A DNA stretch of 64,000 nt from Patescibacteria group bacterium (GCA_049322955.1 JBMOPU010000012.1:681517-745516), one strand, 5' to 3'. Shown: positions 1-7,088, numbered from the stretch's first letter. Numbers and translations: made by a program. The notes: generated by a model from the letters alone, not told the origin.

Positions 1-283
1 TTCTTTAAAGAACTTAAATGTAGATAATATAAAAATTATATTTCAAACTTACCTTAGTGAATATATTTTTGCTAGCTTATTACAAAAAGCAGGACAAAAA
101 TTAGGAAAAATATCACATAAAGACGCCATAAGAATCGAAAAAAGAATGAAAGGATATATCTCATCTAAAGTTAATTTAGACTTATCGAATATTGACTTCT
201 CAAAGATGGATTGGAATGGTCAATCAGGAAAAGCATTTGTTCAAAGTATTTTTGAAAAAGCATATGAGTTGATGGAGACATAA
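1..283 (+). CDS. 3' end (93 codons) of an upstream gene running off the window start. Its TAA stop overlaps the ATG of the next gene (TAATG). Possibly the partner that precedes QueC-like genes in Qat-type loci.
   Basis: Frame 2 is open from position 2 to the TAA at 281-283. Its composition (A+T-rich, Lys/Ile/Asn-rich) matches the downstream island genes. Translational coupling to 283..1593. Confidence 0.4.
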   Translation, partial: SLKNLNVDNIKIIFQTYLSEYIFASLLQKAGQKLGKISHKDAIRIEKRMKGYISSKVNLDLSNIDFSKMDWNGQSGKAFVQSIFEKAYELMET

Positions 284-1593
284 TGACAGTGAATACAATA
301 CATGTAAAAACAGGTAAGGAAGATATAAAAATAGCATCTGGTTTGGGAAATCGGATTATTGATTTTACTTCTACAAACACGAACCAGACACTAGAAAAAC
401 CCTTATGGTTGAATCGAGATTTTTACAATTTAGAGTATCAACCAGTTCTTGTTGATTTGTTTCGCTTAGCAACCTCTGTTTTTATCATCGACAAAACTAT
501 TCCGAGAATTGAAGCTTACGATCGTTGGACAAGAGATATAGAACTAAACTTGCCCGTAAGTGACCCATCAATGTGGTACGAGAATACGAATTTAATTGTT
601 AGATTTCTTAGTTTTCTCACAGGAGATCATTGGAAGGTACTTTTTACCCAAGATGAATCCACACAACCACAAAAGGATAAGCAATTAACGAAAAAAGGCC
701 ATAAGCTAGACGTAAAATCAGTTTCACTTTTTTCTGGAGGTTTAGATTCCTTCATTGGTGTAATAGATCAAATAGTTGATACCGAATCAGTAGCAATGAT
801 TGCTCACTACGATCAGGGGCAGGTTTCTAAAGTACAAAAATTATTACATGCTAGCTTGGTGAGCCAATTCCCCTCTGCAAAGGTAGAATTATTACAATTT
901 TTTGTTCAGCCTTTAGCAACCAGCGAAAATACCATGAGAAGTAGATCTCTGCTTTTTCTATCTTTAGGAAGCATAGTTGCATCTAGTATAGGTGTCAAAG
1001 AATTAATAGTTCCTGAAAACGGTTTTATAAGTTTAAACGTGCCTTTAACATACAATCGGCTTGGAAGCTTAAGTACCAGAACAACTCATCCAAACACACT
1101 AAATCTCTTTAATAGACTACTCCAAAACTTAAGAATAGGTGTTTTGGTATCCGATCCTTACAAATTTAAGACTAAAGGGGAAATGTTATCAGACTCTAAG
1201 AGCCTTGAGTATTTGGTCAGTGTTGCAAATGAAACGATGTCTTGTGCACATGCGAATGTTGGTATATATCAACATTTACCACCAAATAGACATTGTGGAT
1301 ATTGCTTGCCTTGTTTAATCAGGAGAGCTGCATTTCATAGAGTTGGCCTTGATGACCCAAAGCACTATACCTTTGATGTATTAGATTTAGATTTTTTAGA
1401 ACAAGATAGTAGCAAAACTAGTGACCTTAGGGCTGTTTTACATAGCATTGAAAGTCATAAGACAAATTCAACATTAACAAATATATTGAAGACTGGACCT
1501 ATATTTCCCATAAATGACTTAGAAAATTTTTGTAAGATATACAATATGGGAATCCTGGAATTAGAAAGCTTTTTAAGTGTATATAAAGATTAG
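283..1593 (+). CDS. QueC-like PP-loop ATPase (7-cyano-7-deazaguanine synthase fold) with a roughly 140-aa N-terminal extension. QatC/Cap9/DpdC-like.
   Basis: SGGLDS PP-loop at about aa 150. RSRSLLFLSLGS and PENGFISLNVPL blocks resemble QueC core motifs. The C-terminal CGYCLPCLIRR cysteine cluster resembles the QueC zinc site. Tight coupling to the downstream TatD gene. Confidence 0.75.
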   Translation: MTVNTIHVKTGKEDIKIASGLGNRIIDFTSTNTNQTLEKPLWLNRDFYNLEYQPVLVDLFRLATSVFIIDKTIPRIEAYDRWTRDIELNLPVSDPSMWYENTNLIVRFLSFLTGDHWKVLFTQDESTQPQKDKQLTKKGHKLDVKSVSLFSGGLDSFIGVIDQIVDTESVAMIAHYDQGQVSKVQKLLHASLVSQFPSAKVELLQFFVQPLATSENTMRSRSLLFLSLGSIVASSIGVKELIVPENGFISLNVPLTYNRLGSLSTRTTHPNTLNLFNRLLQNLRIGVLVSDPYKFKTKGEMLSDSKSLEYLVSVANETMSCAHANVGIYQHLPPNRHCGYCLPCLIRRAAFHRVGLDDPKHYTFDVLDLDFLEQDSSKTSDLRAVLHSIESHKTNSTLTNILKTGPIFPINDLENFCKIYNMGILELESFLSVYKD

Positions 1594-1599
1594 TGTATT

Positions 1600-2346
1600 A
1601 TGGATTTTAGTAAACAATTTGATTATATCGACACTCACTGTCACCTAGACTTGTATAAAAACTATACAGAGGTTATTGAACAGTCTAAAATGTCAAACAC
1701 TTCGATTGTTGCGGTAACAAACCTTCCAACAGTGTTTGAGCGAGAATGCAAGCTATTCAAAAACTATTCAAATGTAATTGTCGCATTAGGTTTTCATCCG
1801 CAATTAGTGAAATCTCATGGAGATCAGGTAAGTCAGATGTTAAGCTTTATGTCTAAAACGCAATTTATCGGTGAAATAGGGCTAGATTATCAAGAAAATA
1901 ATGATGACCTAAAAACGAAACAAAAATACATATTCCAACAAATATTGGACGGTGCAGCAACATATAGGACCAAAATACTTTCTGTGCATAGTAGAAAGTC
2001 CTCCGAAGATGTAGTAGCTATGATTGGATCTAATTTCCCCGGAAACATTATTCTTCACTGGTATAGCGGGTCACAATCGACGTTAAAAAAGGCTTTGTCT
2101 AATGGATATTTATTTTCCGTTAATCCAGCTATGACATTTTCAGCTAGTGGAAGATCTATTATTAATGGTTTGCCACTTGAAAAAATTTTAACTGAAACAG
2201 ACGGTCCATTCACGGAGGTGAATAATAAACAAAGTATCCCTTCAGACATAAGTTTGGTTCTGGACTACTTGGCAAAGTTACATAATCAAACAACTCAAAA
2301 TATCAAAGAAATAATTAAAAATAACTTTTTGAATATTTTGAATTAA
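1600..2346 (+). CDS. TatD-family metal-dependent hydrolase/DNase (QatD-like)
   Basis: N-terminal DTHCHLD motif, IGEIGLDYQ, LSVHSR, ILHWYSG, TETDGPF. This is the full TatD metal-ligand set. 6-nt gap after the QueC-like gene. Confidence 0.8.
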   Translation: MDFSKQFDYIDTHCHLDLYKNYTEVIEQSKMSNTSIVAVTNLPTVFERECKLFKNYSNVIVALGFHPQLVKSHGDQVSQMLSFMSKTQFIGEIGLDYQENNDDLKTKQKYIFQQILDGAATYRTKILSVHSRKSSEDVVAMIGSNFPGNIILHWYSGSQSTLKKALSNGYLFSVNPAMTFSASGRSIINGLPLEKILTETDGPFTEVNNKQSIPSDISLVLDYLAKLHNQTTQNIKEIIKNNFLNILN

Positions 2347-2352
2347 ACAGAT

Positions 2353-3069
2353 ATGGCAACTATTTATGGTCAACCCAGCCGATATCTCAATGCGAATAAA
2401 ACCATAAGCAAATACGGTGCATTAGCCTACCTAATTTACTTTACAGTTATCATCGGAATTGTTATTTGGCGCTTATCAATAGCCTCGTTCTCATTGCCTG
2501 CTGTTTTCGCTATCTCACTTGTATTTGGCCCGATATTACTCGTTACAGACTCACTCATGAGAAAAGAGGAGTCACTAATGTATAAGTTCCGCAGTGGCAT
2601 TGTTGGAGAAAAGCTAATCGGCGATGAATTAAAGAAACTATATGCAAGTTATACGGTATTTGAAGATGTTCATGTCCCGGGCAAGAAAGAGAATATTGAT
2701 TTTGTGGTCGTTGGCGCTACAGGAATTCATGCAATCGAGGTTAAAAATCATCATGGAAAGGTGGGTTTTGATGGAGATGCCCTCACCTTAAACGACAAAC
2801 CATTCGAAAAGGACTTTCTAAGACAGGCCATGCGCGAAGCAACCTCTCTCCATGATTATCTTGTGTCGTCGGGGATTTCTAATGCGTTTGTTGTTCCTAT
2901 CATTGTCTTTTCTCATCGCTTTGCTCTAGTTAGATTTGGGATTCAGCCTATTAAAAATGTTCGTGTTATTCAGTATCGCTGGCTCAACAAAATGATAACC
3001 AGCGAACCGAGAAGTTATCCAGATCAAAAAGTGGTTGATCTAATAAAAAATACCTACATTCAGGCCTAG
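2353..3069 (+). CDS. NERD (nuclease-related domain) protein with two N-terminal transmembrane helices
   Basis: NIDFVVVGATGIHAIEVKNHHGKV matches the NERD core (ID-x-vv-x-G-x-x-x-IE-x-K). Hydrophobic helices at aa 20-65. 6-nt gap after TatD. Confidence 0.65.
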   Translation: MATIYGQPSRYLNANKTISKYGALAYLIYFTVIIGIVIWRLSIASFSLPAVFAISLVFGPILLVTDSLMRKEESLMYKFRSGIVGEKLIGDELKKLYASYTVFEDVHVPGKKENIDFVVVGATGIHAIEVKNHHGKVGFDGDALTLNDKPFEKDFLRQAMREATSLHDYLVSSGISNAFVVPIIVFSHRFALVRFGIQPIKNVRVIQYRWLNKMITSEPRSYPDQKVVDLIKNTYIQA

Positions 3070-3109
3070 TGGCCTGTGTAAGCAAGCTTTTTTGTAAAGT
3101 TGCGGTCAG

Positions 3110-3346
3110 ATGTTAGAATATAAATATATGAATAGCGATTCCATGAATTTGAAAGAGAAAAAAGAGTTTGGAGATAAAGCTCGTGTTGCTAGAGAGAAGT
3201 TATCCCTAACTCAAGCAGATGTAGCCAAAAAAGCCAATATGACCGTCAACTACTACGCCATGATAGAGCGCGGTGAAGCTAATCTGTCCTTTGAAAAAAT
3301 GAAGAGTATCGTAAAAGTTCTGAAACTCAAGATCACTATTTCCTAG
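3110..3346 (+). CDS. XRE/Cro-C1-type helix-turn-helix transcriptional regulator
   Basis: LSLTQADVAKKANMTVNYYAMIERGE is a classic HTH_3 signature. Small protein at the operon end. The true start may be an internal Met. Confidence 0.6.
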   Translation: MLEYKYMNSDSMNLKEKKEFGDKARVAREKLSLTQADVAKKANMTVNYYAMIERGEANLSFEKMKSIVKVLKLKITIS

Positions 3347-3605
3347 CATCAAGCACTAGCTTGGCTGATTCTCTCATCATTTCGACCAGTTTTTCAGCCT
3401 CTTCAAATGTCGCTCTCTTGGGATTCGTTTGTTGTAGGCTCTCCAGAGCAGATTTGAACATCTGATCGTGATTTGCAGTATCTATAGCAAATTGCAATGT
3501 CTCTCTTGGTACTGCCTCAAACTTTTCCTTGCCGATAGCGGTAATCTCATCCCACGGCAACGAAACTATACTGCTATTTTTATCCATGAACGTATTATAG
3601 TCCAA
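3336..3605 (-). CDS. Hypothetical 89-aa protein downstream of the PLD-like gene
   Basis: ORF in the low-GC island, co-directional with the PLD-like gene at a 33-nt spacing. No recognisable motif. Confidence 0.35.
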   Translation of the reverse strand: MDYNTFMDKNSSIVSLPWDEITAIGKEKFEAVPRETLQFAIDTANHDQMFKSALESLQQTNPKRATFEEAEKLVEMMRESAKLVLDARK

Positions 3606-3638
3606 GAAGCTTACTAGAGGAAATTGCCTATATTTCCA

Positions 3639-4079
3639 CTACATGTATTTTCCGTACCCAATAAAGTTAAATAAATCTACGGCGAAGCCGCCGTCCTCAA
3701 GACGGCGCATAAATTCTCTACTTTTTGCCTGAGAAAGGATATTTAGGCTTCCTTCCCAGAGTATATTGCGGTCGATAATGGCTAGTTTCCGGTGGTGATT
3801 ACCTGTACAAAGCAGTACTTGGATGCCAATATTCTCAAATTCTTGGATTTCTAGCTCAGACTGCTCATCATAGCCATCTATGTGCGCTCGTGGGTCTCGA
3901 GTGACTATGTAGATTTTGACATCGCGCGCAACCAAGCGTCGAAACACTGGCCAAAAAGTCTTCATTCTAGCTATGGTAATGAATGGACTTTCGATAATTA
4001 CCTCATTCTGACTATTCTCTAAGTCTGTCAGAAATTTGGAGAAGAAGGTTTTCTCGTCGTGCAAAGAGGTTTTAATCAT
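3639..4079 (-). CDS. Small phospholipase-D-family (Nuc-like) nuclease, HxKx4D
   Basis: HHRKLAIID followed by GSLN fits the HxK(x)4D(x)6GSxN PLD motif. GGAGG RBS 6 nt upstream of the ATG on the minus strand. Confidence 0.65.
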   Translation of the reverse strand: MIKTSLHDEKTFFSKFLTDLENSQNEVIIESPFITIARMKTFWPVFRRLVARDVKIYIVTRDPRAHIDGYDEQSELEIQEFENIGIQVLLCTGNHHRKLAIIDRNILWEGSLNILSQAKSREFMRRLEDGGFAVDLFNFIGYGKYM

Positions 4080-4189
4080 GTAAATCCTCCTCCGACTTCG
4101 ATTGATACAGTTCCATTAACCTGGTAAAATGTACTAGGTAATTGTCGGAGAGCGGTTCAAAATAAGAATCGTCCTCCGCACTAGCGAAC

Positions 4190-4657
4190 ATGGCAGAATT
4201 CCCCCACCACGAAATGAGAGGTGATGAGTCTCGCGTAGTACTTCTACAGGCCCTTCGGGCAATGCAACATCGCATCAGCATTCCGCAACTCATCGACGGA
4301 TCAAGGCTTTCTCCACTTATCAAATTGGGGCTCAATAATCTGATTATGTGTGAAGGAGGCAAGTTTAAATCCGTTCGGGCGGTTCAAGAACTTACGGCAC
4401 TGGATGTGCCGACGCTCATGTTGGAGGGTGGAATTTACCATCTCCACAGGGTCATGCGACAAAATGAAAGAAAAATTGTTCGTAATCTGATGCCGCTTGA
4501 CGATGTTGTCGTCATTGGCCCAGAAAGCATTTTTCGTTACGGTGACCCATCAATTCCCGACAGTGGCTATGGGGAAACGCTAAATAGAATTCCTAACCTC
4601 AGAATGGTGGAAGACGTGATTGACGCGGTACGGTATCTTCGGGAAAGGAACGCGTAG
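4190..4657 (+). CDS. Hypothetical protein (uncertain ORF at the island/host junction)
   Basis: 155-aa ORF with intermediate G+C. No motif recognised. The alternative minus-strand reading is shorter. Confidence 0.25.
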   Translation: MAEFPHHEMRGDESRVVLLQALRAMQHRISIPQLIDGSRLSPLIKLGLNNLIMCEGGKFKSVRAVQELTALDVPTLMLEGGIYHLHRVMRQNERKIVRNLMPLDDVVVIGPESIFRYGDPSIPDSGYGETLNRIPNLRMVEDVIDAVRYLRERNA

Positions 4658-4662
4658 GAGTG

Positions 4663-5118
4663 CTATGTCAATTTTCCTGCAAGCAAAGTAGCCCAATCTT
4701 TTACTGCTTGTTCGTTTGCGGCGAGGCTATAGTAGCGATCAATTTTAAGTGAAGGTACCACGAGGGTAACCGAGAGCTTGTTAAATATTTCCTCCATGAC
4801 ATCAATGGCGCCGCAGTAATGGGGATAGGAAGTGTCTCCGAGACCGATGAGTGCCACTTTCTTCCCCGACAGGTCTTCGTTCGTAAGACTTTCAACAAAC
4901 GCTCGTACTTCGGGGAGAGGCTGTCCGTCTTTCCCTTGATCCTCCCAACTGGGAGAACTGACGATAAGCACGTCATACTCGGCAACCTTCTCGCGGGTCA
5001 CTTCATCGGCGGAAAACATGTCAACGGTATGATTGGCGGTACGAAGTGTTGCGGCGGCAACTTCCGACGCACTCATGGTCGAACCGGACAGGGTGCCATA
5101 GACAAGGAGGCATTTCAT
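4663..5118 (-). CDS. Flavodoxin
   Basis: MKCLLVYGTLSGSTM N-terminal FMN phosphate loop. SPSWEDQG and GLGDTSYPHYCGA flavodoxin motifs. About 150 aa. Confidence 0.8.
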   Translation of the reverse strand: MKCLLVYGTLSGSTMSASEVAAATLRTANHTVDMFSADEVTREKVAEYDVLIVSSPSWEDQGKDGQPLPEVRAFVESLTNEDLSGKKVALIGLGDTSYPHYCGAIDVMEEIFNKLSVTLVVPSLKIDRYYSLAANEQAVKDWATLLAGKLT

Positions 5119-5137
5119 AACTGTGATCTATTATACA

Positions 5138-6187
5138 TTAGTGGAGCGAGTTGTGAACGATCTGTACCACAAAGTCATCAAGCGTCATCCCGTGTGCTTT
5201 GATACTCGCCGTCATGGCATCCCGGGGATCCGGATCAAAGCCTGCATTGGCGTTGGCTTCGAGAAAGTACCACATATTATTTTTCGTATTGAACCGCAGA
5301 TCAAAGCGCGCATAATCCCGAAGACCTAGCGCGTAAAAGGCTCGGATGGAATCTTTGCGAATGCCGGTATCTATCCCTGACTTCAGTTCTTTGGGAGGAG
5401 CGATAAAGTGACAGCTTTGGTATGCGGCCGTGTTTTTTGTCCATTTTTCATCAAAGCCATAGATATTCCATTTATTTTTCCCTTTTGATTTGAATGCGAT
5501 TTCCGCAATGGGAAGTGCATACGTTTTGGTGGGTGTCTCGAGCACAGTGACCTGCAGTTCTTTGCCGGGAATAAATTCCTCCGCTAAAAGCGCCTGTTTA
5601 TGATTTTTTCGCATGGTCTGCACGATTTTCTTAAACTGTTCGTAGGTGGTGGCGATTGATTTGTTGGTAATGCCGATACTGCAGTGTTCAAATGCAGGCT
5701 TGACGATAATCGGAAATTTTCCAGGAAGCATTTTTCGGCTTATGCGGTCATGCAGACGGATAATCGTATATTTCGGCGTCGGCAACGCATATTTTTCAAA
5801 CAAACGTTTTGTTTTCAATTTATTATTGGAAATTTGAATGGCTTTAAATGAGGATCCTGAATACGGAATATGCAGTCTTCCCAATATTTTGGCAATCTCG
5901 ACCTCCATTTTCTTGCTGTCCACGAGATTAAAAACAAAATCTGCTTTGAGATTTTTAAGTTCCGAAAGATCATCGGGTTTTACTTTAATAATCTGTACTT
6001 TATATCCGCGTTTGCGAAAAAGTGCGGTCATATACCGCACGATATCGTCGGTTTGGTTGTCGACGAGTGCATGTTCGGAACTGAAATACGTGTCAGTAAT
6101 ATCCTTGGGAACGTAATGATACAGAATCGCAATGGTGTGCGATTTTTTTGATTTGATATTTTTCTTTTTTGATTTCATAGAACGCAA
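5138..6187 (-). CDS. ATP-grasp enzyme of the D-alanine--D-alanine ligase family
   Basis: Blocks IVKPAFEHCSIGI, EEFIPGKELQVTVLE, ARFDLRF and MWYFLEANANAGFD match the Ddl/ATP-grasp C-terminal fold. The Lys-rich N-terminus is atypical. Confidence 0.7.
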   Translation of the reverse strand: MRSMKSKKKNIKSKKSHTIAILYHYVPKDITDTYFSSEHALVDNQTDDIVRYMTALFRKRGYKVQIIKVKPDDLSELKNLKADFVFNLVDSKKMEVEIAKILGRLHIPYSGSSFKAIQISNNKLKTKRLFEKYALPTPKYTIIRLHDRISRKMLPGKFPIIVKPAFEHCSIGITNKSIATTYEQFKKIVQTMRKNHKQALLAEEFIPGKELQVTVLETPTKTYALPIAEIAFKSKGKNKWNIYGFDEKWTKNTAAYQSCHFIAPPKELKSGIDTGIRKDSIRAFYALGLRDYARFDLRFNTKNNMWYFLEANANAGFDPDPRDAMTASIKAHGMTLDDFVVQIVHNSLH

Positions 6188-6277
6188 CTATTACAACAAC
6201 AAATTTTTTGCCGTTTGTCAAATATACCATAACCATTGTGGCGACCGTATGGTATTTGTTAAAATAGAACCCTTGGG

Positions 6278-6350
6278 GGACGATTAGCTCAACGGCTAGA
6301 GCACTTCGTTTACATCGAAGGGGTTGGGGGTTCGAATCCCTCATCGTCCA
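6278..6350 (+). tRNA. tRNA-Val (anticodon TAC)
   Basis: Hand-folded cloverleaf. Acceptor GGACGAT/ATCGTCC, D-stem GCTC/GAGC, anticodon stem CTTCG/CGAAG with loop TTTACAT, T-arm GGGGG-TTCGAAT-CCCTC. Confidence 0.85.
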
Positions 6351-6419
6351 CTGAATTTGCTCTGTGACGCAGTGTGGGTATCAGGGTATAATTCATTGCA
6401 AAGTGGTGTGATCGGTTTT

Positions 6420-6492
6420 GCTGAGGTAGCCAAGGTGGTCACGGCGCCTGTCTGAAAAACAGGTTATGCGTGTTCGACTCACGCCCTCAGCA
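6420..6492 (+). tRNA. tRNA-Phe (anticodon GAA), CCA encoded at 6493-6495
   Basis: Acceptor GCTGAGG/CCTCAGC, anticodon stem CCTGT/ACAGG with loop CTGAAAA, T-arm GCGTG-TTCGACT-CACGC. 3-bp D-stem with a 9-nt loop containing GG. Confidence 0.75.
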
Positions 6493-6540
6493 CCATAGTC
6501 GTCTATCAGGGTCGAATTAGGAAAGCACACGTGCTTTGAG

Positions 6541-6636
6541 TATAATATCGTCGCAAGGGAGTGCGTTATGTGGAGAGCCCTTGCGACACTCTGGTAGAAA
6601 GGGAGGTTGGAAGGGAAACGTCGTTTCCCGTCCATG
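6541..6636 (+). promoter_or_regulatory. tRNA-Gly leader: TATAAT box followed by a conserved two-hairpin leader (copy A of a repeated motif)
   Basis: TATAAT at 6541. Hairpin GTCGCAAGGG...CCCTTGCGAC and hairpin GGGAAAC-GTC-GTTTCCC. About 75% identical to copy B at 6737-6830, with compensatory stem changes. Confidence 0.45.
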
Positions 6637-6639
6637 AAA

Positions 6640-6711
6640 GCGGCGTTAGTTCACCGGTAGAATGTCTCCTTGCCAAGGAGAAGGTAACGGGTTCAATTCC
6701 CGTACGCCGCT
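6640..6711 (+). tRNA. tRNA-Gly (anticodon GCC)
   Basis: Acceptor GCGGCGT/ACGCCGC, anticodon stem TCTCC/GGAGA with loop TTGCCAA, T-arm ACGGG-TTCAATT-CCCGT. Confidence 0.85.
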
Positions 6712-6736
6712 CAGAGAATCACTATCCAAAATAGGT

Positions 6737-6830
6737 TATAATTATGTCGCGAAGGTGTGCTATATGTATGAGCCCTTCGCGACTCTTTGGTAAATAGGAT
6801 CGTTGGGAAGGGAACATCGTTTCCGTCCCA
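6737..6830 (+). promoter_or_regulatory. tRNA-Gln leader: TATAAT box plus conserved two-hairpin leader (copy B)
   Basis: TATAAT at 6737. Hairpin GTCGCGAAGG...CCTTCGCGAC (a compensatory A-T to G-C change relative to copy A). Second hairpin GGGAAC-ATC-GTTTCC. Confidence 0.45.
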
Positions 6831-6836
6831 GAGAGG

Positions 6837-6908
6837 TGCGGGGTCGTTCAACGGTAGGACACCTGCCTTTGGAGCAGGGTATTCTTGGTTCGAATCCAAG
6901 CCCCGCAG
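6837..6908 (+). tRNA. tRNA-Gln (anticodon TTG) with U1:A72 first pair
   Basis: Acceptor TGCGGGG/CCCCGCA, D-stem GTTC/GGAC, anticodon stem CCTGC/GCAGG with loop CTTTGGA, T-arm CTTGG-TTCGAAT-CCAAG, discriminator G. Confidence 0.85.
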
Positions 6909-6914
6909 CTTATA

Positions 6915-6945
6915 CAAAAATTGCCCATATTGGGCATTTTTTGTA
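6915..6945 (+). terminator. Rho-independent terminator after the tRNA cluster
   Basis: GCCCA-TAT-TGGGC hairpin followed by ATTTTTTGT. An A-tract upstream makes it potentially bidirectional. Confidence 0.6.
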
Positions 6946-7088
6946 TATACGGGGTTTATGGTAAGAACCGACATTGGTTCGAAAATGAGGAGTCGTTATA
7001 GCGACAACGATCGCTGTAACAGCGAATCATTCATGGAGTCTTGCTTTGCGACACGAATATCTTCCAAGCCCCGCAATCTGCATTAAAT

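Follow-up and report, generated by a model that had tools for sequence, protein, structure and literature searches.

The QatABCD anti-phage system reportedly goes back to work by Gao et al. in 2020. Here we analyze a QatABCD operon, and the genomic slot in which it resides, at the left end of a 64,000-nucleotide stretch of DNA from a Patescibacteria group bacterium (GCA_049322955.1, JBMOPU010000012.1:681517-745516). This whole stretch is called the window in what follows; positions refer to it unless they carry a prefix, and L001-L066 denote the related loci and contigs that were compared. An earlier note on this DNA had proposed that its first ~4 kb form an island in which a Qat-like gene pair is combined with NERD, XRE and PLD family genes into a novel or variant defense system. 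We consider it very likely that the island carries a canonical QatABCD system as an exchangeable cassette in a defense hotspot linked to a type IV secretion system (T4SS), with the NERD gene as a second, independent cassette. What is known here is QatABCD itself, which NCBI names automatically; what may be new is the slot, which is sharply bounded and tied to the T4SS.

In the Qat system, the minimal defense unit is a 1:1 complex of QatB with QatC, and the ATP site of QatC, its Thr pair and the glycine at the QatB N-terminus are all essential, which suggests that the N-terminus of QatB is modified in a manner similar to deazaguanylation by Cap9 (PMC13279940, PMC13376578, PMC13639016). The distinguishing features of QatC are N- and C-terminal extensions, an SGGxDS motif, a Thr-x-Thr motif that replaces Tyr/Asp, and a four-Cys Zn site; QatA is an oligomeric KAP NTPase that binds DNA and forms heptamers or octamers, and a wider range of phages is restricted in the presence of QatA and QatD (PMC13279940). 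QatD is a 3'-5' exonuclease and apurinic/apyrimidinic endonuclease, reportedly inhibited by nucleoside triphosphates, and in a survey of QatD, which was 91.7% Pseudomonadota and 6.8% Bacillota, 98.1% of the Qat clusters were plain four-gene operons (PMC13434339). The T4SS of Patescibacteria is chromosomal, comprises a VirB4 of the monoderm mating-pair formation (MPF) type FATA and arrays of pilins, and usually has no relaxase; its description makes no mention of defense genes, NERD or PLD (PMC12102498). Defense hotspots are known from mobile elements, as credited to Rousset et al. 2022 in PMC12259885.

An exact-sequence look-up of QatC identified a 12.5-kb public contig (L001) that matches window 1-4181 over its last 4181 bases with 0 mismatches. 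The upstream part of this contig encodes a 610-residue KAP NTPase (very probably QatA) and the complete 285-residue QatB, as had been anticipated for the Qat components missing from the window, and the four genes follow each other in the order QatA-B-C-D on one strand (L001 5892-10647), with a 2-nt gap, a 1-nt overlap and a 6-nt gap between them. The QatB fragment at the window edge matches NCBIfam NF041924 (7.5e-12) and the PADLOC QatB model (4.5e-07), both alignments reaching the model end, and the full-length protein scores above the NF041924 cut-off (109.2 bits versus 100; PADLOC 1.6e-41). The N-terminus of the latter, MGTSKSYSGPSGKNPLIPDW, starts with MGTSKSY...PDW and so displays the published essential MGTS motif together with a Pro/Trp patch at residues 18-20; the protein also has a low-complexity tail of ~95 residues. 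For QatC, the score against the equivalog NF041925 is 398.8 bits (cut-off 280; PADLOC 2.3e-106), and the protein aligns with the QatC structures in PDB (9vlk, 1.5e-59, over residues 53-432; 9zee, 1.2e-56); it contains SGGLDS at 151, TRTT with the QatC-specific Thr pair at 265, and the Zn-site cysteines Cys321, 338, 341 and 344. QatD likewise exceeds the cut-off of its equivalog NF041926 (253.7 bits versus 230; PADLOC 2.2e-71), is related to PDB entries 3gg7 (6.7e-43) and 9xsn (2.4e-38), and has its HxH motif in DTHCH at residue 11. The QatA candidate matches NF041923 over its full length (1.4e-148; PADLOC 1.2e-126) and contains the Walker A motif GDWGNGKS. Proteins identical to these are present in NCBI in a metagenome-assembled genome (MAG) of a "Patescibacteria group bacterium", on a contig of 990,597 bp, and one of them, MFZ5535241.1, already bears the name "Qat anti-phage system QueC-like protein QatC".

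On these matches, a complete, canonical QatABCD operon very likely extends into the window, with its 3' part at 1-2351 and with qatA and the start of qatB outside. With described QatABCD systems the locus shares the set of four genes, the first of them very probably qatA, their order and strand, scores of QatB, QatC and QatD above the equivalog cut-offs, and the intact published motifs. Compared with Qat proteins encoded on plasmids in other phyla, the local ones show 22-36% identity (35-36% for QatC), and their host belongs to the Patescibacteria, with a genome of ~1 Mb, a phylum that is not listed in the QatD survey (PMC13434339). Judging by the intact motifs, the locus would work as the Qat systems in the literature do: by analogy to Cap9 of the type IV cyclic-oligonucleotide-based anti-phage signaling system (CBASS), QatC would bind QatB and spend ATP to modify the free N-terminal glycine of QatB (MGTS). 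Should this genome of ~1 Mb lack 7-deazaguanine synthesis, a Qat that works in it would argue that the substrate of QatC is not 7-carboxy-7-deazaguanine (CDG), or else that CDG is scavenged from the host of the bacterium. The presence of Qat in a host with a minimal metabolism may help to narrow down the QatC reaction.

The surroundings of the operon were analyzed by comparing 65 fetched loci by tblastn and blastn with the island genes as queries; these loci were reached through NERD and then through VirB4 and PLD, and most of them are short metagenome contigs, with a scan of genome contigs yielding 4 loci only. The comparison reveals a constant frame that consists of genes for two TrbC/VirB2-like pilins, a PrgI-like and a TraC-like protein, VirB4 and an M23 peptidase, followed by a variable interval and then by the XRE gene, a small open reading frame (ORF) and the PLD gene on the opposite strand. 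Across the 65 loci, the flanking proteins show 84-97% (VirB4), 71-94% (M23) and 47-96% (PLD) identity, and at least 13 different contents are found between M23 and the NERD or the XRE-PLD side, nine of which match known or candidate PADLOC defense models, type I restriction-modification (R-M) being named from Pfam domains (Table 1). All 20 places that were reached through PLD (L047-L066) have either type III CBASS or IetA/IetS between M23 and XRE. The cassette borders are sharp, at window positions 2352, 3088/3089 and 4181: the Qat cassette extends from ~L001 5833 to window 2351, the NERD cassette from 2352 to ~3088, and the right anchor from 3089 to 4181.

Table 1. Genes of the island, alternative occupants of the slot and features beyond its right end (window positions unless a locus is given)
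Feature	Position	Strand	Remarks
qatB, C-terminal 93 codons	2..283	+	cut by window edge; full gene L001 7727-8584, 285 aa
qatC, QueC-like PP-loop ATPase, signature Qat enzyme	283..1593	+	436 aa
qatD, TatD-family nuclease	1600..2346	+	248 aa
NERD-domain protein, probably membrane-anchored	2353..3069	+	238 aa; Pfam NERD 3.8e-15
XRE-family helix-turn-helix (HTH) regulator, first right-anchor gene	3110..3346	+	78 aa; HTH_3 4.8e-13
orf89, small ORF downstream of PLD	3336..3605	-	83-89 aa; convergent overlap of XRE stop
Single-HKD PLD-family protein, right anchor of the hotspot	3639..4079	-	146 aa; PLDc_2 9.5e-10
Last 102 bp of the block	4080..4181	.	nearly invariant; PLD ribosome-binding site and upstream region; host junction
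Cargo: QatABCD	window/L001, L012 (part), L016, L020		
Cargo: Gabija	L003 658-3280		GajA 1.6e-215, GajB 3e-112
Cargo: PDC-S06	L013 7750-9993, L014, L045		
Cargo: PDC-M68A and B	L023 3488-6352		
Cargo: 1245-aa DUF4365/TPR protein and 185-aa protein	L004 4753-9054, L025		
Cargo: 1185-aa protein	L015 6402-9959		sub-threshold HEAT-repeat match only
Cargo: HerA, small KTSC-like ORF (by eye), DUF2779	L017		M23 gene off contig
Cargo: IS200 transposase only	L018		
Cargo: type I R-M with PDC-S46	L035 12477-20695, L036		reached through VirB4
Cargo: SNF2-HKD helicase and type IIG R-M, PDDEXK protein, PDC-S06	L037 12480-21800, L038, L039		reached through VirB4
Cargo: type II R-M with PDC-S06	L045 12481-17122		reached through VirB4
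Cargo: IetA and IetS	L046 12415-15712, L057-60		L046 reached through VirB4
Cargo: type III CBASS	L047 11085-14842, L047-55		cyclase 3.6e-125, HORMA 4e-60, TRIP13 3.5e-121, NucC 2.8e-81
tRNA gene beyond block end	L016 6435, L018 2708-2795, L031 4700-4787, L014 11890, L015 11883, L021 6026		

The slot resembles the P2/P4 hotspots, the cargo slots of integrative and conjugative elements (ICEs) and Tn7, and the core hotspots of Pseudomonas (PMC10250203) in that conserved flanks enclose a changing interval, and the known hotspots likewise hold mostly known or candidate defense genes and sometimes insertion sequence (IS) elements or a near-empty state. Unlike in those hotspots, the flanks consist of the M23 peptidase gene, with which the Patescibacteria T4SS block ends, and the XRE-PLD module; a description of this slot was not found in the limited set of literature that was searched. 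Most likely, related elements would exchange cassettes by recombining through their conserved flanks. The cargo shares the orientation of the T4SS operon, with which it is probably co-transcribed. Whether the interval between M23 and XRE/PLD is a widespread and previously undescribed docking site for defense cassettes in the T4SS block of Patescibacteria, with occupants that are probably co-transcribed with the host-contact machinery, is a proposition for which we would put belief and doubt at about the same level.

Several occupants of the slot, namely the 1185-residue protein of L015, the 185-residue protein of L004 and a pair of 102- and 545-residue proteins encoded between NERD and PLD in L002 (1822-4054), as well as orf89 and orf155, showed no family match in Pfam, PADLOC or NCBIfam. 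An S24 peptidase gene precedes the CBASS genes in L047 (14213-14842). By position alone, the occupants of L015, L004 and L002 that matched no defense model and this S24 peptidase are candidates for new defense genes. Transposases of the IS200 type (Y1) and the IS3 type (rve) are present in or near the slot (L018 365-760, L031 2924-3343, L022 81-1206, L029 and L030); in L022, the IS3-type element is located directly upstream of a PDC-S06 remnant, the last 275 codons of the gene.

The NERD gene follows qatD closely in the window, and the earlier note regarded it as fused into the Qat operon. The distribution of the gene does not bear this out. Close homologs of the NERD protein (74-95% identity) are encoded on many metagenome and MAG contigs, and the DNA homology of the relatives without Qat begins at 2352, a single base ahead of the start codon of NERD. 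NERD is found beside at least 7 other cargo types, including Gabija, PDC-S06, PDC-M68 and an IS200 transposase alone; it is absent from 22 loci (L045, L046 and 20 of the 20 places reached through PLD, L047-L066), and truncated in L031; in L029 and L030, the first ~97 codons are missing and an IS3-type transposase gene is located next to the remainder. In three of three distant Qat loci, located on plasmids of Vibrio, Hymenobacter and Moraxella, the A-B-C-D order is kept and qatD is not followed by a NERD gene, and the combination of Qat, NERD, XRE, orf89 and PLD recurs only in L012, L016 and L020, with 90-98% amino-acid identity to the window. By this pattern of presence and absence, NERD is an independent and dispensable cassette in the slot and not a Qat component; such a patchy, decaying distribution is what would be expected of an accessory defense or toxin gene as opposed to a part of a machine. 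We had also considered NERD as the conserved backbone anchor of the slot, and this was ruled out by the 22 loci that lack it; the idea reflected an ascertainment bias, because the loci retrieved with NERD as the query all carried NERD, whereas those reached through VirB4 or PLD did not.

The NERD protein carries the D...ExK signature of the nuclease-related family, D116 and E129-x-K131 being invariant among 36 homologs, and probably has a membrane anchor: residues ~20-65 are hydrophobic, with two likely membrane segments that were read by eye without a predictor. It resembles the N-terminal domains (PF08378) of PglW (BREX), MkoA (Mokosh) and MAD6 in having a NERD domain with the conserved D...ExK, and differs from them in being a stand-alone protein of 238 residues with a hydrophobic N-terminal stretch and without a kinase or helicase partner domain. 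The best PADLOC matches are the PglW and MkoA domains, and no whole-protein defense model was matched in PADLOC or NCBIfam, only the domain regions. In four relatives, a TATAAT-like box is located 6-8 nt before the NERD ATG (L017 3630-3643, L018 815-828, L019 1315-1328 and L023 6380-6393), and none of the four has a Shine-Dalgarno sequence ahead of NERD, so that NERD may be expressed there from its own leaderless transcript. In the window, the 6 nt upstream of NERD are occupied by the QatD stop instead of such a box.

On the other side of the slot, the conserved DNA starts at 3088 or 3089 in 21 loci without NERD. Relative to the window, the XRE protein is 96-100% identical in L012, L016, L018, L031 and L046, 95% in L020 and 76% in L017; orf89 is 90-98% conserved in the close subgroup, with an unrelated ORF of 76-77 residues in its place in the other PLD clade. 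The trio of XRE, orf89 and PLD is found beside Iet and type III CBASS without NERD, as exemplified by L046, where the three proteins are 100, 95.5 and 93% identical to those of the window and the homology covers 3089-4181. The PLD protein contains HRKLAIID at 96 and GSLN at 110, that is, one copy of the HxK(x)4D(x)6GSxN motif, and is likely to be a nuclease of the Nuc/Zucchini type; a PDB sequence search yielded only weak matches to MitoPLD/Zucchini (E = 0.16), and the best PADLOC matches are the domains of MkoC, MkoB and DrmC. It has more than 5000 homologs, and wherever the sequence of a relative extends to the end of the block, a PLD gene is located there. Ahead of its ATG, at a distance of 6 nt, is GGAGGAGG, and in alignment A1 nearly all columns are invariant up to ...CGTCCTCCGCA, beyond which the five of five sequences diverge. 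The end point at 4179-4184 is common to 26 loci with different outer flanks and is also where the identity to L001 stops, so that the right edge of the island, placed at 4190 in the earlier note, was nearly exact. As judged from these alignments, XRE, orf89 and PLD (3089-4181) are the conserved right anchor of the cargo slot and not parts of Qat. A sigma-70-like site at 4102-4130 (+ strand; TTGATA, a 17-nt spacer, TAAAAT and an upstream TG; a consensus match only) lies within the nearly invariant 102 bp and points outward, to orf155 here and to tRNA genes in several relatives.

The island contains seven ORFs, from the partial one at 2..283 through that ending at 4079, at the positions originally described; on the + strand they are packed with a 1-nt stop/start overlap and then gaps of 6, 6 and 40 nt. 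The family assignments of the NERD, XRE and PLD proteins were confirmed by Pfam, as was that of QatD (TatD_DNase, 2.7e-51; the E values of the others are given in Table 1). The A+T-rich character of the first ~4 kb also held up: the GC content is 0.365 across 1-4181, versus 0.499 +/- 0.017 (sd; minimum 0.454) in windows of the same size from the remaining 60 kb, i.e., ~8 sd under the mean, and Lys, Ile and Asn make up more of the island proteins (7.4, 7.9 and 5.7%) than of the housekeeping proteins (6.2, 6.6 and 3.4%), in accord with the foreign composition that had been suggested. Within the island, GC is 0.332 in the Qat part and 0.406 from NERD to PLD. Taken together with L001, the GC content forms layers (0.50 in the host, 0.40-0.43 in the T4SS block and the right anchor, and 0.33-0.39 in Qat), and this stepwise drop would fit Qat as the layer imported last. 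Scans of 1-4700 for promoters (15 versus 13.5 expected) and terminators (1 versus 3.3 expected) were at chance level, an Rfam scan of the window yielded tRNAs only, and phage-like genes were absent from all Pfam tables, no PHROGs search for prophage genes having been made.

The T4SS genes are located at L001 638-5804, and the VirB4 protein belongs to the CD1110 family (NCBIfam, 370 bits versus a cut-off of 325). The conserved block begins at L001 507-512 and extends to about L001 5770, where the M23 gene ends; its left homology edge simply coincides with the -35 box (TTGACT) in the promoter of the pilin operon. A VOC-family gene, read from the sequence, is separated from the left side of the block by 250 bp. 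As in the described Patescibacteria cluster, there is an MPF-FATA VirB4, tandem VirB2/TrbC-like pilins and PrgI- and TraC-like genes, with no adjoining relaxase in the window's copy; unlike that cluster (PMC12102498), the block has a GC content of 0.40-0.43 against 0.50 in the host, sharp ends and flanks that depend on the genome. VirB4 is 90-97% identical across assemblies labeled Collierbacteria, Nomurabacteria, Microgenomates, Gottesmanbacteria and Shapirobacteria, and in some related copies genes for a type IV coupling protein (T4CP)-like protein, a Replic_Relax protein and a large serine recombinase are located beside the block. This VirB4 identity across assemblies, the differing flanks and the neighboring T4CP, Replic_Relax and recombinase genes point to horizontal spread and an origin from a conjugative element. 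The large serine recombinase gene is found just outside the PLD end in L058 (762-2351) and to the left of the T4CP-like and Replic_Relax genes in L042 (1-1562; L042-44), a layout that would be compatible with an ancestor of ~20 kb that was circular or excisable and joined the two ends. Neither a coupling protein nor a relaxase nor an integrase is visible at the window's copy, in L001 or in the window. The designation of the block as an ICE, which we considered, was softened, given that the T4SS is chromosomal and mostly relaxase-free (PMC12102498) and no terminal repeats of at least 8 nt were seen; the window's copy is not called an ICE, because both these repeats and the T4CP, Replic_Relax and recombinase genes were not seen there. 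Contigs with the T4SS block and NERD also occur in MAGs labeled Gammaproteobacteria (L012 and L014), and one VirB4 homolog is labeled Elusimicrobia; these labels result either from mis-binning or from a wider host range of the element.

Several other interpretations of the locus have to be weighed. That the gene at 283..1593 is a housekeeping QueC of queuosine/preQ0 synthesis, next to an ordinary TatD DNase, has next to no probability in our view. The protein does match Pfam QueC (8.1e-08), but this match is C-terminal and spans only the last 60 model positions, the score against TIGR00364 is 25.7 bits versus a cut-off of 150.3 while that against the QatC equivalog is well above its own, the Tyr/Asp pair that recognizes the substrate has given way to the QatC-specific Thr pair, and the neighbors are QatA and QatB, with no queD, queE or queF in L001 or window 1-7000. 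The TIGR00364 score and the upstream QatA and QatB refute this interpretation, and the gene is not the genuine QueC beside que genes that the earlier note had put forward as the outcome that would overturn its Qat assignment. Another possibility is that NERD, and perhaps XRE and PLD, were recruited as an effector or regulator into an extended Qat variant of five to seven genes: the genes are co-directional, only 6 nt separate the QatD stop from the NERD start with no terminator between them, and the order Qat-NERD-XRE-orf89-PLD recurs in L012, L016 and L020. These three loci do not count as independent evidence because they are 90-98% identical copies of a single element lineage. Moreover, at least 10 other cargo types accompany NERD, and likewise the XRE-PLD trio, where Qat is absent, NERD has an IS200 transposase alone upstream in L018, and NERD is missing from the Vibrio, Hymenobacter and Moraxella Qat loci; four-gene operons account for 98.1% of the surveyed clusters (PMC13434339). 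An extended Qat therefore appears quite improbable, and NERD plus PLD cannot be maintained as the non-canonical defense architecture that had been suggested; the expectation that the genes are conserved as a unit in relatives holds for the three close copies and fails for divergent, independent loci.

It is somewhat less improbable, albeit still unlikely, that NERD and PLD are accessories of secretion or conjugation, e.g., nucleases that act on transferred or host DNA, and have no role in defense, the cargo slot simply being situated between them and the T4SS genes. The PLD-family Nuc encoded on IncN plasmids (pKM101) provides a comparison for such an accessory nuclease. In line with this possibility, all copies of the T4SS-linked block that extend far enough end with PLD, the 102 bp upstream of it are nearly invariant, and T4CP-like, Replic_Relax and large serine recombinase genes adjoin the block in some copies. 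Against it, NERD is dispensable, being absent from 22 loci, truncated in one and without its 5' part in two, the start of the PLD protein shows no obvious signal peptide (by eye), the best PADLOC matches of both proteins are domains of defense proteins (MkoC, MkoB and DrmC for PLD; PglW and MkoA for NERD), and neither is among the T4SS components in PMC12102498. The interpretation that we favor, namely a canonical QatABCD that is an exchangeable cassette in a T4SS-linked hotspot, with NERD as a second cassette, has to accommodate a number of observations that weigh against it. QatA scores 496 bits, below the strict 600-bit equivalog cut-off of NCBIfam, and the 610-residue KAP NTPase is very probably a divergent QatA. 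Given the spacing between qatD and NERD noted above, NERD is almost certainly co-transcribed with Qat in the window, and a functional interaction between the two at this locus is conceivable. Because the loci were ascertained through NERD, VirB4 and PLD, the frequencies of the different contents are not population estimates. Finally, no recombinase is visible in the window's copy, and no terminal repeats of at least 8 nt were found at its two ends.

As written, the finding of Qat at this locus changes little, amounting to a standard QatABCD in a phylum where Qat has not been highlighted. The slot has further implications. It could be mined for new defense genes across thousands of Patescibacteria assemblies, with single-nucleotide borders, and its unannotated occupants would be immediate candidates. 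Furthermore, the T4SS block, deemed a chromosomal hallmark of epibionts, would travel with, or collect, immune cargo.

The outer flanks of the block include genes for tRNA-Pro, tRNA-Leu, tRNA-Lys and tRNA-Gln, the trigger factor and a large serine recombinase. Six relatives carry a gene for tRNA-Pro, tRNA-Leu-CAG, tRNA-Lys or tRNA-Gln at a distance of 14-200 bp past the block end (Table 1). The nearest tRNA genes of the window (Val, Phe, Gly and Gln, 6278-6909) are 2.1 kb away, past orf155, a flavodoxin gene and an ATP-grasp gene. The latter (5138-6187, - strand), which resembles D-Ala-D-Ala ligase, is a second patch of low GC content (0.37-0.40) that adjoins the tRNA cluster and lies outside the island. 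The junction with the host DNA is spanned by two overlapping ORFs, one of 96 residues on the - strand (4072-4362) and orf155 on the + strand (4190-4657); the former would start in host DNA, reach into the conserved end of the block and overlap the start of PLD.

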